43,955 nt of DNA from a virus: the UHGV virus genome UHGV-0152227; one strand, written 5' to 3'. Made by a program: the position numbers and the translations under genes. Within the stretch, counting starts at the first letter, position 1; the number at the start of each line of letters is the position of its first letter. Of the stretch, positions 7,785 to 37,437 are shown piece after piece. The notes beneath the pieces are model-generated. The model was not told the origin of the DNA and ran no database searches. It saw only the letters and a list, made by a program, of their open reading frames with translations.

Positions 7785-7826
7785 TAGACAACCCATAAAT
7801 ACGAACAGATATTACCTTTCAGGTGA
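7785..7826 (+). promoter_or_regulatory. promoter plus near-consensus operator upstream of the mini Ant-domain gene
   Basis: TAGACA (7785-7790), 17-bp spacer, GATATT (7808-7813). Dyad TTACC TTTCA GGTGA at 7812-7826 matches 9 of 10 operator bases. Confidence 0.45.
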
Positions 7827-7902
7827 TTTGCAAAACGTGCTGGATAGCAAACAAATTATTTGTTACTGTATAAATATACAGTTATCGTATGGAGAAGATA
7901 AG

Positions 7903-8160
7903 ATGCAGCAGTATCACTATCCACTGGAAGACGGATTTACCGAAAGGATTCACACGCCGGGAGGCGTCAGATCACTGGTGGAGGGATCGCACTTGATGAA
8001 ATTACTCCGGGATCTCGATAAGGATGGATTTAATGTCGATGGCCCACTTGCCGAACTGACTGCACTGATTAACTACGTCACCAGCTCACAGATGTCTATG
8101 CAGGATCTGCAAACACATCTCGACTATTGTGCCGAACAATTACGAAAACAAACCAGATAA
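7903..8160 (+). CDS. 85-aa stand-alone homologue of the antirepressor C-terminal domain
   Basis: GGAGA RBS 7 nt before the ATG at 7903. By hand alignment it is about 40 percent identical to the shared C-terminus of the 8476 and 41902 proteins (IH.P.GV..L.E.S.LM.LL..L..DG..V.G..AELT...Y...D.QTH..Y). Confidence 0.7.
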   Translation: MQQYHYPLEDGFTERIHTPGGVRSLVEGSHLMKLLRDLDKDGFNVDGPLAELTALINYVTSSQMSMQDLQTHLDYCAEQLRKQTR

Positions 8161-8191
8161 GGTTTGCAATTACCAAGTGGAGTGCTTATAT

Positions 8192-8238
8192 TTACCTTTG
8201 CGGTAAATTTACATCGCACTCCTCTTGTGCCATAGTAA
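8192..8238 (+). promoter_or_regulatory. operator plus promoter of the antirepressor-1 leader
   Basis: Perfect dyad TTACC TTTGC GGTAA (8192-8206), then TTTACA (8208-8213), 17-bp spacer, CATAGT (8231-8236). Confidence 0.5.
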
Positions 8239-8296
8239 TCGGGTACTGGCAAAATCCAGTGCCGGGATTGGCGTCCCGAGTTACTAAGTGGCGCAT

Positions 8297-8320
8297 ACCA
8301 CGCCAGACGTGGTTTTTTTA
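8297..8320 (+). terminator. rho-independent terminator/attenuator inside the antirepressor-1 leader
   Basis: Stem ACCACG (8297-8302) / CGTGGT (8308-8313), loop CCAGA, then a T6 run. Two more hairpins precede it (ACTGG..CCAGT and CGGGA..TCCCG). Confidence 0.7.
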
Positions 8321-8344
8321 TGCGTTAAGCACAGCTATATCCGA

Positions 8345-8420
8345 ATTATGGTGGGCTGGGCAGGGGTCCGAAAGGACGCCGGTACCACTTAGGCCGGTAC
8401 GCCAACCTTGTCCAGTTCAC
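8345..8420 (+). ncRNA. candidate c4-like antisense RNA 1 (boundaries approximate)
   Basis: ATGGTGG (8348-8354) is complementary to CCACCAT (8471-8477, includes the ant1 ATG). CCACTTAG (8385-8392) is complementary to CTAAGTGG (8457-8464, overlaps the SD). A closing helix pairs 8355-8362 with 8409-8416 (6 WC + 2 GU). No plausible ORF. Confidence 0.4.
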
Positions 8421-8475
8421 CACCAGTAATTGGCGTTGCGGTGGTGATTAAAATCACTAAGTGGAGATAACCACC

Positions 8476-9186
8476 ATGGCTAATGCTCAAACTGCCATCT
8501 TCAAATTTGAATCTGTTAACCCTATCCGTTCCATCATTATCGATGGCCAACCATGGTTTGTAGCCCAAGACGTTTGTAGTGCGCTGCGTATCCAAAACGT
8601 CACCCAAGCACTTGAAAAACTGGATGATGATGAAAGGTCTATGTTCAACATAGGGCATGAACATCGTGCAATTTTTGACAGCCGAGTAAAAGAGATCAAC
8701 ATCATCTCCGAGTCAGGCCTCTACACACTGATCCTCCGCTGCCGCGACGCAGTGACACCAGGCACTATCCCCTACCGCTTTCGTAAATGGGTTACAGGTG
8801 AGGTTCTTCCTCAGATCCGCCGCACCGGAAGTTACATTAAAAACTCGCTCCCGCAGGAAGAACGCATAAAGATGGTTGCCGACCAGGTTGCAAACGCCAC
8901 AGCATCAGCAGTGATGCAGGCAATGAAGATAGAGAACAAAACCTACAGCGCCCCACTGAAGCCCGGCTACCGTAGCCTGATTCATTCGCCGTCTGGTGTT
9001 CTCGGCCTGACGGAGAACTCACTGCTGATGAATCTGCTGAACCAGTTACAGGAAGACGGGCACGACGTATCGGGCGCGGCGGCGGAGCTGACCACCATGT
9101 TCTGCTACATCGTCGGTGTGAGCAAATGCCTGCGTGATATCCAGACGCACGCGGAGTACATCAACGACAAGGCTGGGTTCTTCTGA
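8476..9186 (+). CDS. antirepressor 1 (BRO-N N-terminal domain + shared C-terminal domain)
   Basis: BRO-N signature (FESVNPIRSIIIDGQPWFVAQDVCSALRIQN...SESGLYTLILR). GGAG RBS 9 nt before the ATG at 8476. Confidence 0.8.
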   Translation: MANAQTAIFKFESVNPIRSIIIDGQPWFVAQDVCSALRIQNVTQALEKLDDDERSMFNIGHEHRAIFDSRVKEINIISESGLYTLILRCRDAVTPGTIPYRFRKWVTGEVLPQIRRTGSYIKNSLPQEERIKMVADQVANATASAVMQAMKIENKTYSAPLKPGYRSLIHSPSGVLGLTENSLLMNLLNQLQEDGHDVSGAAAELTTMFCYIVGVSKCLRDIQTHAEYINDKAGFF

Positions 9187-9210
9187 CGGGCGGCGGCACA
9201 GGGATGTGCC
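8944..9210 (+). repeat. 267-bp direct repeat, copy 1 (3' third of antirepressor 1 plus downstream hairpin)
   Basis: About 97 percent identical to 42378-42646. About 7 base differences were counted by eye in the coding part, and all are synonymous. Confidence 0.9.
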
Positions 9211-9230
9211 TTTAAATAATTCTGTACAGA

Positions 9231-9273
9231 TTGCAGACTGTGGGTGAATAGCGTACTATTACCTCAAGGGTAA
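9231..9273 (+). promoter_or_regulatory. promoter plus operator of the toxin-like pair
   Basis: TTGCAG (9231-9236), 17-bp spacer, TACTAT (9254-9259). Perfect dyad TTACC TCAAG GGTAA at 9259-9273, abutting the -10. Confidence 0.55.
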
Positions 9274-9333
9274 ACGGATTGGTTTCATTTTTATTAATCC
9301 GTGTAATGAACTTATGAGATATGAGGTAATGTC

Positions 9334-35992: not shown

Positions 35993-36167
35993 AGGTTTCC
36001 CCTCTTGCACTCTTTAGTGCACAAGCAAATTCATTACGATGGCGGTTGGCGCTATTCATTGCACATTCAACACATGTTCCGTTCAGAACATACCTTTCAG
36101 AGAGATGGCCGTGACGGCACCGCTTTCCTGTGAAATAGCGATTTAACCCGGCTTTTGCGGCCTCCAT
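35973..36167 (-). CDS. small zinc-ribbon protein (64 aa)
   Basis: GKRCRHGH...NGTCVEC pattern. The start is ambiguous between ATG 36167 and TTG 36185. Confidence 0.5.
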   Translation of the reverse strand: MEAAKAGLNRYFTGKRCRHGHLSERYVLNGTCVECAMNSANRHRNEFACALKSARGETYGKQLD

Positions 36168-36263
36168 TCTGGTTACTATCTTCAATTTTTCCGCCCCTTT
36201 TTGTTATTGATATTGGCTATTTTGCACAATTGGAAAATTTGATCAACCAGATTTGGTTTTTTA

Positions 36264-36278
36264 TTACCTTTGAGGTAC
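36264..36278. promoter_or_regulatory. isolated near-consensus operator downstream of the cro-like gene terminator
   Basis: TTACC TTTGA GGTAC (9/10). Confidence 0.45.
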
Positions 36279-36287
36279 GAATAGATA

Positions 36288-36312
36288 TGAAAAGACCGCC
36301 GGGTGGCGGTCT
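36288..36312 (-). terminator. terminator after the cro-like gene
   Basis: 8-bp stem AGACCGCC / GGCGGTCT, loop GGGT. The minus strand continues TTTTC. Confidence 0.65.
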
Positions 36313-36333
36313 ACAGAGGGTTGTAGCTGGATA

Positions 36334-36564
36334 TCATGAGTAGAAGAAGTATGCCAGTTCTGCTTTTGAGCGCAGCCATTGTCTTGTTTTACAGGCTTTA
36401 AAAAGCCCATTCATCAATACTTTACCTGGCATTTTGCGCTTACCTGTTAAGTGAGTCTGGATATAGTGACTCGTCGTTCCGGCTTCCTGTGCGAAGGCTT
36501 CACGCTCATCCGGAGTAAGTGCAAGCCAGTGCTTTTTGAAATCGAAATGTCCGTTATCGCTCAT
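36334..36564 (-). CDS. Cro-like HTH regulator (76 aa)
   Basis: HTH AGTTSHYIQTHLTGKRKMP. It is divergent from the repressor gene across the operator cluster. Confidence 0.7.
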   Translation of the reverse strand: MSDNGHFDFKKHWLALTPDEREAFAQEAGTTSHYIQTHLTGKRKMPGKVLMNGLFKACKTRQWLRSKAELAYFFYS

Positions 36565-36596
36565 AGCTATTGCCTGATATTTATTTCAGATAATAA

Positions 36597-36663
36597 ATAT
36601 TCACCCATAAGGTAACAAAAATCAAGGATAGTTACCTATGAGGTGCATTTACCTGTTGGGTAA
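36597..36663. promoter_or_regulatory. immunity operator cluster (3 dyads) with the leftward cro promoter
   Basis: Dyads TCACC CATAA GGTAA (36601-36615), TTACC TATGA GGTGC (36632-36646) and TTACC TGTTG GGTAA (36649-36663). Minus-strand promoter: TTGATT (36620-36625), 17-bp spacer, GAATAT (36597-36602), overlapping the first dyad. Confidence 0.65.
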
Positions 36664-36718
36664 TATTGCTTTAAATTGAATCATCTACTGATTCATATAT
36701 GAGGCGATTTTCCAGAAA

Positions 36719-37303
36719 ATGAAAAGTATCCAGGACGTCCGCAGGCAAAATCTCAACGACTTGATCGACCGTGAATTCAATGGTGTTCAGACGCGGATGG
36801 CAGAAAAACTTGGAACTCAGGCAAATCTGGTAAACCGCTGGGCTCTTGGCAAGAAGGTTATCGGCGACCAGGTTGCACGAAAAATTGAAGCTGCCGCCAA
36901 TAAACCCCGTAACTGGCTTGATATCGATCGCTCGCTTTCTCAGGAAGGTTTTCAGCCTGTCGGCCCGAGCGATATAGGTCAGCTGGCGGCTCACAACCTG
37001 GAACGCTGGATGAGCGAAAGCCGCGACCTTTCAACGCAGGGAAAACTACACCGCGCATCCGGCGTCGCCCAGGTGACAATCAGCCGCCTGTTAAACAATG
37101 AGGTCAGCGTTTCCATTTCCACCCTGGAGAATGTTGCATCCGCATTCGGGCGTCACGGCTATGAATTACTGATTCACCCGCACGACCCTGCGACCATCAA
37201 CTATGATCGCTCGCGCTACGCATTGTTACCCGAAACCGAGAAAGCAAAGATCGAAAGTTACATTGAATTTGTCATCAACCAGAACGAAAAAAACAAACAA
37301 TAA
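36719..37303 (+). CDS. prophage repressor with two tandem HTH_XRE domains and no S24 peptidase domain
   Basis: HTH 1 is QTRMAEKLGTQANLVNRWALGKK...PRNWLD. HTH 2 is QGKLHRASGVAQVTISRLLNNEVSVSISTLENVASAFG. No Ser/Lys autocleavage module was recognisable. The RBS is weak or absent. Confidence 0.75.
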   Translation: MKSIQDVRRQNLNDLIDREFNGVQTRMAEKLGTQANLVNRWALGKKVIGDQVARKIEAAANKPRNWLDIDRSLSQEGFQPVGPSDIGQLAAHNLERWMSESRDLSTQGKLHRASGVAQVTISRLLNNEVSVSISTLENVASAFGRHGYELLIHPHDPATINYDRSRYALLPETEKAKIESYIEFVINQNEKNKQ

Positions 37304-37323
37304 AATCATATTTTTCAGTAAGT

Positions 37324-37348
37324 AAGCCGCCTTCTGGCGGCTTTTTTA
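37324..37348 (+). terminator. rho-independent terminator of the repressor gene
   Basis: Stem AAGCCGCC / GGCGGCTT, loop TTCT, then a T-run. Confidence 0.85.
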
Positions 37349-37360
37349 TTGCCTATTCGA

Positions 37361-37437
37361 TTACCTAATGGGTAATTTTTTTAACTCATATCTATTGACA
37401 TCAAACCAGATACGCATAATTATTACCTCAACGGTAA
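37361..37437 (+). promoter_or_regulatory. early-right promoter flanked by two perfect operators
   Basis: TTACC TAATG GGTAA (37361-37375); TTGACA (37395-37400), 17-bp spacer, AATTAT (37418-37423); TTACC TCAAC GGTAA (37423-37437). Confidence 0.6.

Follow-up and report, generated by a model that had tools for sequence, protein, structure and literature searches.

Dispersed TTACC-N5-GGTAA dyads in an Escherichia coli Uetakevirus prophage as probable operators of its immunity repressor

Introduction

The C1 repressor of phage P1 acts at dispersed operators, which serve replication, antirepressor, late-activator and accessory genes, and a C4 antisense RNA acts on the antirepressor. The P1 operators are asymmetric 17-mers, and the late genes are controlled via the activator Lpa. 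In mycobacteriophage L5, the repressor gp71 binds ~30 sites in short intergenic stretches distributed genome-wide (the stoperators), which are asymmetric and orientation-dependent, and block elongation. The lytic switch of phage SPC32H, formed by the repressor Rep, the antirepressor Ant and LexA, was reportedly solved by Kim and Ryu in 2013 and by Kim et al. in 2016 (PDB 5D4Z and 5D50). Here, we describe a repeated palindrome, TTACCNNNNNGGTAA (TTACC-N5-GGTAA), in the virus genome UHGV-0152227, analyzed as a single stretch of 43,955 bp (the window). The dyad is very probably the operator of the prophage immunity repressor Rep, a protein that appears to be of the epsilon15/SPC32H type, inactivated by an antirepressor, and it stands before almost every transcription unit.

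The window was identified as an E. coli Uetakevirus prophage of the epsilon15/phiV10/ZX5 type, with 97-98% identity to the E. coli phages vB_EcoP_ZX5 (ZX5), TL-2011b, HEMP4 and phiV10; the type phage of the genus is Salmonella phage epsilon15. A gene map was curated from open reading frame (ORF) lists and the annotations of close relatives, by which 10.2% of the window is non-coding. Genus-wide comparisons used 10 Uetakevirus genomes, the window and nine others, with hosts in Escherichia, Salmonella, Klebsiella and Enterobacter. An original prediction, made from the letters of the window, had proposed that one DNA-binding protein gates most transcription units of this phage through the dyad.

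Occurrence and conservation of the dyad

Nine perfect copies were found in the window, starting at 8192, 9259, 26711, 29856, 34300, 34362, 36649, 37361 and 37423, compared with 0.01 expected from 100 dinucleotide shuffles, none of which contained more than one. Allowing one mismatch raised the number to 14 sites versus 0.71 expected, the additional starts being 7812, 29838, 36264, 36601 and 10509; the site at 36632 has two mismatches. Such a search against shuffled controls was the check proposed originally. Eight of the nine perfect starts given at that time were correct, and the ninth, placed at 34299, was off by one; the near-copies listed were all recovered, and only the intragenic 10509 had been missed. 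Among all dyads in the window composed of a 5-mer, a gap of 0 to 11 and the reverse complement, TTACC-N5 ranked first with 9 copies, the next best having 3.

On the curated gene map, all nine perfect copies (P ~1e-9) and four of the five one-mismatch sites are non-coding, which upholds the claim that no perfect copy lies inside a gene. A similar density in coding DNA, which would have spoken against a regulon, was not seen; both classes are concentrated in the non-coding tenth of the window. Two-mismatch windows (1 non-coding versus 29 coding) represent background, except for 36632. The one-mismatch copy at 10509, which lies within a gene and has no syntenic counterpart, is probably a chance match. 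The symmetrized consensus of 73 distinct copies is A-TTACC-(T/a)nWn(A/t)-GGTAA-T, 17 bp long, so that the flank first read as TATTACC was roughly correct. The dyads are symmetric and serve genes of both strands. At least 14 sites are spread over at least nine separate loci, including terS, gp3, the tail fibre/ant region, the nin region and morons, instead of forming two clusters beside the repressor gene, and the layout is wider than the two-operator logic of lambda, as had been suggested.

The nine other Uetakevirus genomes contain 8-11 perfect TTACC-N5-GGTAA copies each, at the same syntenic places. Site classes before gp3 and at ant/tail fibre, PL, OR and nin were found in 10 of 10 genomes and the terS class in 9 of 10, with Rep identity down to 42%. 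The conserved layout consists of two terS copies 18-20 bp apart, one copy ~90 nt before gp3, one at ant/tail fibre, three between rep and the Cro-like gene, a pair downstream of rep before recE/recT, a nin pair (next to a DUF1064 or RuvC-like resolvase gene), and a one-mismatch int copy; additional copies occur at the lysis cassette in some genomes and at lineage-specific accessory genes. The repeated palindrome is real, non-coding, and kept at syntenic promoter-proximal positions genus-wide.

The epsilon15 record (GenBank AY150271.2, RefSeq NC_004775.2) carries seven 'protein_bind' features, with the repressor as bound moiety and a reference to lysogeny. Four are labelled at 12-27 (terS), 2931-2947 (gp3), 19895-19911 (gp19(ant)/tail fibre) and 35906-35922 (nin-region resolvase), and three lie downstream of the repressor (32479-32494, 32554-32570 and 32616-32632). 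All seven are hits of our pattern base for base, each TTACC-N5-GGTAA, and have syntenic equivalents in the window; the epsilon15 dyads at OR (33341, 33358), at the lysis cassette (24704) and at the second nin position (35969) have no label. For epsilon15, the motif, the places where it occurs and its assignment to the repressor are thus already public, and the present result is a confirmation, not a discovery. What is added here is the E. coli lineage with its accessory modules, the 62/31/17-18-bp grammar of site spacing, the terS unit of terminator, extended -10 and double operator, and an out-group link between the half-site and the Rep N-terminal domain. No account of the operator set emerged from full-text literature searches on the motif and on Uetakevirus repressors, papers about the E. 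coli members included. The ZX5 paper predicted four promoters and only speculated on repressor action at 'PL' (PMC9782041).

Rep and the other candidate binding proteins

The immunity repressor Rep (194 residues; gene at 36719-37303, plus strand) has an N-terminal helix-turn-helix (HTH) DNA-binding domain and a C-terminal dimerization/tetramerization and Ant-binding region. A phmmer search matched residues 1-190 to the SPC32H Repressor chain 5D50_A (E 4e-42) and residues 89-190 to the C-terminal fragment 5D4Z_A. Pfam assigned only HTH_3/XRE-type HTH families, and no S24 peptidase domain was found in Rep with Pfam. Rep had originally been described as a 'double-HTH' repressor; by homology to 5D4Z/5D50, only the N-terminal HTH is taken as DNA-binding (PMC9986798). 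Rep is 100% identical to ORF21 of ZX5 and to its phiV10 counterpart, 75-78% to those of Enterobacter phages, 45% to those of Klebsiella phages, and 42% to the epsilon15/SPN1S/SPC32H group, and its helix NLVNRW is invariant genus-wide, even at 42% overall identity. The N-terminal domain of the window Rep is 100% identical in at least 80 IMG/VR viral contigs (247 relatives confirmed); the 80 loci returned by an alignment of four Rep N-terminal domains are all of this identical kind, and are thus uninformative for covariation of helix and half-site. Overexpression of ORF21, the ZX5 repressor, yielded no free phage and lowered holin/endolysin mRNA by more than 99.9% (PMC9782041). This drop is consistent with repression, direct or indirect, well past the early promoters.

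The Rep N-terminal domain, the Cro-like protein and a 113-residue regulator are all conserved within the genus, and evidence on the binder was sought in more distant phages. Pseudomonas phage PseuP_224 is an unrelated lambdoid siphovirus that uses a Q antiterminator. Its cI protein combines a C-terminus of the S24 peptidase type with an N-terminal domain that is homologous to the Rep domain (39% identity over 71 residues, E 1e-12). TTACC-N4-GGTAA occurs in the phage genome in three perfect copies and one with one mismatch, all within 900 bp beside cI as classical OR/OL sites, and nowhere else. This region of PseuP_224 (10906-11821 and 11851-12081) comprises cI, the four operators and an unannotated 76-residue cro-like ORF divergent from cI. 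In Moraxella phage Mcat9, the repressor of which has a homologous N-terminal domain, TTACY-N5-RGTAA-like repeats lie on both sides of the repressor gene. The comparison shows an apparent association of the half-site with the Rep N-terminal domain, the genome-wide dispersal being a feature of Uetakevirus rather than a property of the protein family.

These phages also bear on the Cro-like protein, a small regulator of 76 residues homologous to epsilon15 gp39 and encoded by the first gene of the replication-side early operon (36334-36564, minus strand). It matches PHROG 35 'transcriptional repressor' (E 5.6e-13), its HTH segment AGTTSHYIQTHLTG is invariant in the genus (5 genomes), the interval from cro to rep holds three sites, as does the lambda OR, and Mcat9 has a similar-looking small divergent protein beside its similar repeats, all of which would fit a regulon read mainly by this protein, alone or in competition with Rep, and acting in lytic growth rather than in the lysogen, e.g., by turning early and accessory units down. 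PseuP_224, however, shares the half-sites with a cro that has no detectable similarity (no BLASTP alignment between the PseuP_224 cro and the window protein, and a tblastn E of 0.15 or worse), while the N-terminal domain of its cI is homologous to that of Rep. We consider it improbable that the Cro-like protein is the main reader, and it is unlikely to be the sole one. By analogy with lambda it may share the Rep operators, which is compatible with the assignment to Rep.

The third candidate is a Cys-rich regulator of 113 residues, similar to epsilon15 gp49 and N15 gp46 (29957-30298, minus strand). Its 75-80% identity across the genus, its PHROG 536 'transcriptional regulator' match and its place directly before the terS unit would suit a late or middle activator or repressor that owns the sites outside the immunity region. 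This is very unlikely, as the 'immunity' and 'dispersed' copies are the same in sequence, the identical dyad occurs between rep and cro and downstream of rep, the places expected of an immunity operator, and PseuP_224 has the half-sites without a gp49-like gene (for neither this regulator nor Ant was a homologue found in its genome); the Mcat9 comparison also speaks against it. The N-terminus of the protein is basic, its C-terminus contains a cluster of Cys residues (CGKCG...SCPC...C), and its gene is always directly followed by the terS unit of terminator, promoter and operators. The protein may be a late regulator.

A host transcription factor with the dyad as its binding site, linking the prophage to the physiological state of the host, would account for the same motif in phages of Escherichia, Salmonella, Klebsiella and Enterobacter, hosts with many common regulators. 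The half-site nevertheless accompanies a homologous repressor domain in Pseudomonas and Moraxella phages, the sites cluster about the phage's own repressor gene, and we know of no enterobacterial factor with a TTACC-N5-GGTAA consensus; a host reader is accordingly extremely unlikely. The original proposal of one immunity-region protein with operators far beyond OL/OR, by contrast, is supported by the epsilon15 annotation, the synteny in 10 genomes, the promoter overlaps and the PseuP_224 half-sites.

Arrangement of the sites at promoters

Between the Cro-like gene and rep, a three-site cluster (36601, 36632 and 36649) was confirmed. OR site 1 (36601-36615; TCACC-N5-GGTAA, one mismatch) falls between the -35 and the -10 of the promoter on the cro side, or overlaps them, the minus-strand candidates for this promoter being TTGATT (36625-36620)-17-GAATAT and TTGTTA-17-TATTAT. 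One imperfect half-site is kept there in all genomes and the site is never perfect; the defect is in opposite halves, reading TCACC...GGTAA in E. coli/Enterobacter phages and TTACC...GGTGA in Salmonella/Klebsiella phages. OR site 2 (36632-36646; TTACC-N5-GGTGC, two mismatches) is separated by 31 bp from site 1 and by 17 bp from site 3; it is perfect in the Klebsiella and Salmonella relatives, its degeneracy being confined to the E. coli/Enterobacter lineage. The perfect OR site 3 (36649-36663) has its right half over a conserved TAATAT, the candidate -10 of the rep promoter. These conserved OR imperfections suggest tuned operator affinities. A further one-mismatch site (36264-36278), 337 bp from OR site 1, lies past the cro terminator and upstream of gp40 and the replication genes; it is conserved in relatives, with the same mismatch in ZX5, phiV10 and Tyrion.

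Downstream of rep, the promoter on the recE/recT/xis side is bracketed by two perfect copies. The distal operator (37361-37375) follows the rep terminator (37324-37343), and the proximal operator (37423-37437), 62 bp away, begins on the last base of the -10 of a rightward early promoter assigned from consensus (TTGACA 37395-37400, 17 nt, AATTAT 37418-37423). At the nin-region promoter, the distal operator (34362-34376) lies past the replication genes and a terminator, and the proximal operator (34300-34314) includes the Shine-Dalgarno sequence GAGG, with 3 nt between its end and the ATG of a DUF1064/Holliday-junction-resolvase-like gene; the promoter itself, on the minus strand, is a conserved TTGATT-17-TTTAAT. 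Phylogenetic footprints revealed that the two promoters share one module: terminator, distal operator, ~20 bp, -35, 17 bp, -10, and proximal operator, the first T of which is the last base of the -10. In all ten genomes, the centres of the paired dyads are separated by 62 bp (62-63 bp for the pair downstream of rep), 62 bp corresponding to 5.9 helical turns.

The terS leader, on the minus strand, consists of the stop codon of the 113-residue regulator gene, a terminator hairpin (29890-29907) with its T-run, an extended -10, operator 1, 3 bases, operator 2, and the ATG. The extended -10 reads TGGTACTAT at 29878-29870 (TGG 29878-29876, TACTAT 29875-29870), and TGnTAnTAT is found in 9 genomes. 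Operator 1 (29856-29870) is directly downstream of the extended -10 promoter; operator 2 (29838-29852, one mismatch), 18 bp from operator 1 in the window, covers part of the terS ribosome-binding site, with 2 nt between its end and the ATG at 29835. The RefSeq annotation of phiV10 (NC_007804.2) gives terS as 41-715, a start that puts both operators (87-101 and 105-119) within the coding sequence; this start is probably over-extended, since other records begin terS at the ATG just past operator 2.

That the sites at 29838 and 34300 overlap Shine-Dalgarno sequences, together with predicted hairpins of -3.5 to -6.4 kcal/mol, would be expected if the palindrome acted as RNA, with a leader hairpin of 5-8 bp that hides the ribosome-binding site or binds a translational regulator. 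The half-sites are instead invariant, not covarying, over the 73 distinct copies; stem-preserving double changes occur in 6 of 253 two-mismatch windows, all of them coding and none at a syntenic site. Many copies lie upstream of the -35 or between divergent promoters, in either gene orientation, and a homologous repressor is surrounded by the same half-sites with another gap (N4). The RNA-hairpin reading, which we consider hardly credible, was rejected for want of covariation at the syntenic sites.

The perfect gp3/portal operator (26711-26725) stands 90 nt in front of gp3, with which the portal/head late block opens, and was found in 10 of 10 genomes, with an annotated equivalent in epsilon15. 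It had originally been assigned to a tRNA moron; as it is kept 90 nt upstream of the gp3-portal genes in every genome, with or without the tRNA, its conserved target would be the gp3/portal operon, and the moron is unlikely. The tRNA-Arg(TCT) gene (27048-27124, plus strand) is on the strand opposite the late genes, and overlaps a minus-strand ORF (27054-27305) annotated as a hypothetical protein in TL-2011b and phiV10. No convincing sigma-70 promoter could be placed for gp3 or the tail fibre. A search for weak partner sites 62 bp from single operators found only an in-register GGTAAT half-site at gp3 and none at the tail fibre, and no consistent rule. The 9-mer TATGTGGTT occurs exactly three times, on the minus strand (7772-7780, 26659-26667 and 34320-34328), where we estimate that ~0.3 would be expected. 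Each copy belongs to the leader of a lytic unit on the minus strand (tail fibre, gp3/portal and nin), has GGTAAT or TTACC 5 nt after it, and is conserved in the genus; TATGTGGTT may be a second regulatory element, e.g., an activator site or an unusual promoter.

The conserved int-upstream site (ATACC-N5-GGTAA) is cut by the window end, and only its left half is present (43948-43955, reading ATACCTTT). This one-mismatch site, ~42 nt before int, has the same imperfect form in all relatives, and in epsilon15 it overlaps an annotated integrase-binding site (26873-26882). In the int-proximal accessory region, 41771-41860 (plus strand) matches the Rfam family sRNA-Xcc1 at gathering level (64.2 bits). 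A lysis-cassette operator is not recognizable in the window (~3820-3980, minus strand), where a different plus-strand gene (3979-4830) abuts the region; in relatives, the site is perfect in epsilon15 (24704) and has one mismatch in phiV10, Tyrion, SPN1S and BUCT554.

Antirepressors and accessory modules

The divergent tail-fibre/small ant region contains a one-mismatch operator (7812-7826), present in 10 of 10 genomes and annotated in epsilon15 at 19895-19911. A LexA box, CTGTATAAATATACAG (CTGT-N8-ACAG; 7866-7881, plus strand), read from the sequence and conserved in 10 genomes, precedes the gene of a small antirepressor Ant of 85 residues (7903-8160, plus strand). This had been noted as a 'mini Ant-domain gene'; the protein is actually a genuine SPC32H-type antirepressor, matching 5D50_E 'Anti-repressor protein' in phmmer (E 4e-47). 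Because homologues of both Rep and Ant were found, with a LexA box before ant, the window is taken to contain an SPC32H-type Rep/Ant/LexA switch.

A second operator (8192-8206) precedes a module of isrK-like small RNA (sRNA), C4-like antisense RNA and BroN-Ant gene; it starts on the last base of a -10-like hexamer (TATATT, 8187-8192) and lies just upstream of a -35 (TTTACA at 8208). The isrK Hfq-binding sRNA (8243-8319, plus strand, 63.5 bits) and the C4 antisense RNA (8344-8427, plus strand, 66 bits) were matched at the Rfam gathering level, and lie back to back downstream of the operator and directly upstream of the BroN-Ant gene (8476-9186, plus strand). BroN-Ant is a fusion, the last ~85 residues of which are homologous to the small Ant, PHROG 450 matches both proteins, and the resemblance can be seen in their translations; through this homology the prophage would have two Ant domains, one LexA-gated and one sRNA-gated. 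An antisense layer similar to immI of P1/P7 appears to control the second antirepressor in a Uetakevirus. A further operator (9259-9273) precedes a pair consisting of a small ORF and a YafO toxin gene, and a -10-like TACTAT (9254-9259) ends on the first base of the dyad.

Proposed mechanism of repression

The SPC32H Rep reportedly binds DNA as a tetramer, each palindrome being occupied by two N-terminal domains contributed by different dimers (PMC9638917). The fold of its tetramerization domain is called 'TetDloop', after the DNA-looping Rco repressor of pLS20; its two dimerization-domain pairs are ~100 Å apart, and the structural mechanism of repression is described as 'not extensively characterized' (PMC9986798). 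In the model favoured here for the window, each dyad would be read by one pair of N-terminal HTH domains with NLVNRW as recognition helix, and one tetramer, with two such pairs, would hold two dyads. This would explain the conserved pairs: those 62 bp apart (~6 turns) that bracket a -35/-10, those at 31 and 17 bp in OR, and those at 18 bp before terS. Sites 31 bp (105 Å) apart could be bridged on unbent DNA, 62 bp would require a small promoter-enclosing loop, and sites 17-18 bp apart would be occupied side by side. With the proximal sites in the spacer or beginning at the final -10 base, RNA polymerase would be kept out by bound Rep.

In the lysogen, Rep would directly shut both early operons, the nin region, the terS and gp3/portal late blocks, the tail-fibre/ant region and int, as well as the BroN-Ant module with its sRNAs and the YafO pair; that it gates the late operon directly is what we infer from the positions of the dyads. 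Rep would not undergo RecA-mediated cleavage and would be inactivated by the LexA-controlled Ant. DNA damage would remove LexA from the ant promoter, Ant would strip Rep from the DNA, and all units would be released together. With Rep operators at both antirepressor promoters (7812 and 8192), Rep and Ant would form a double-negative loop, for which LexA is the external trigger. We also entertain, more doubtfully, an almost flat programme, in which one Ant-sensitive Rep tetramer clamps promoters through 62-bp or adjacent dyads and holds the late operon off directly, at the terminator-insulated extended -10 of terS with its two operators, one of which is on the ribosome-binding site, lytic timing being set by graded affinities, not by an antitermination or activator cascade.

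Several observations weigh against the assignment to Rep or parts of this model. Conservation within the genus is unable to assign the binder, because all three candidates are conserved, and the argument across genera consists of one clean case (PseuP_224) and one fuzzy case (Mcat9). The repressor-site annotation of epsilon15 may be purely computational. In promoter scans, promoter-like sites were not more frequent than in shuffled sequence, and most -35/-10 assignments are tentative, being consensus guesses that rest on phylogenetic footprints. The sites at 36264, 37361, 34362 and 26711 lie upstream of a core promoter and not over it. No lysis-cassette operator is recognizable in the window, and the fall of holin/endolysin mRNA in ZX5 may be indirect. 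Finally, a loop as short as 62 bp is tight, and the 17-, 18- and 48-bp spacings are out of helical phase.

Comparison with known systems

The prophage group of ZX5, phiV10 and TL-2011b is very common in E. coli, and the epsilon15 regulatory map is transferable to it. The operator map would explain the silencing of late genes upon repressor overexpression, and the site grammar (62-bp brackets, 17-18-bp adjacent pairs, and imperfect OR, int and post-cro sites) yields predictions for how a tetrameric SPC32H-type Rep represses. Current understanding is not overturned by the operator set.

Judged by Rep homology, by Ant with its LexA box, and by the sequence and positions of the operators, the window would carry the Rep operator set of the epsilon15/SPC32H group. 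Epsilon15 has the same dyad at the same syntenic positions and an identical recognition helix, although the repressors are only 42% identical overall; the window adds operators at the E. coli-specific BroN-Ant (isrK/C4 RNAs) and YafO modules, and is without the lysis-cassette site. With the SPC32H switch, the window shares Rep (E 4e-42), the small Ant (E 4e-47) and the LexA box before ant, no S24 autocleavage domain having been found in the window Rep, and differs in having a second antirepressor, the BroN-Ant fusion, under putative sRNA control.

The scattered operators and the antisense layer are reminiscent of P1 C1, whereas the window has symmetric dyads directly on late-operon promoters and a Rep of the HTH_3/XRE type, which is not known to be related to C1 or gp71. 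Silencing beyond two promoters is common to the window and the L5 stoperators, which differ in that the window sites are perfect dyads, promoter-associated, and serve both strands. Unlike the OL/OR of lambda-type phages, the operators are not confined to two clusters beside the repressor gene. PseuP_224 cI shares the N-terminal domain and the half-sites by the repressor gene, and differs in the N4 gap, the S24 C-terminus, the restriction of its four sites to OL/OR, and the control of late genes in its phage by a Q antiterminator; one DNA-reading head appears to serve both a classical OL/OR switch and, in Uetakevirus, a genome-wide regulon. With pLS20 Rco and the p53 'TetDloop' regulators, Rep shares the combination of an N-terminal DNA-binding domain and a C-terminal tetramerization domain (PMC9986798), an arrangement suited to bridging two sites, by which Rep might loop the DNA at the 62-bp brackets.

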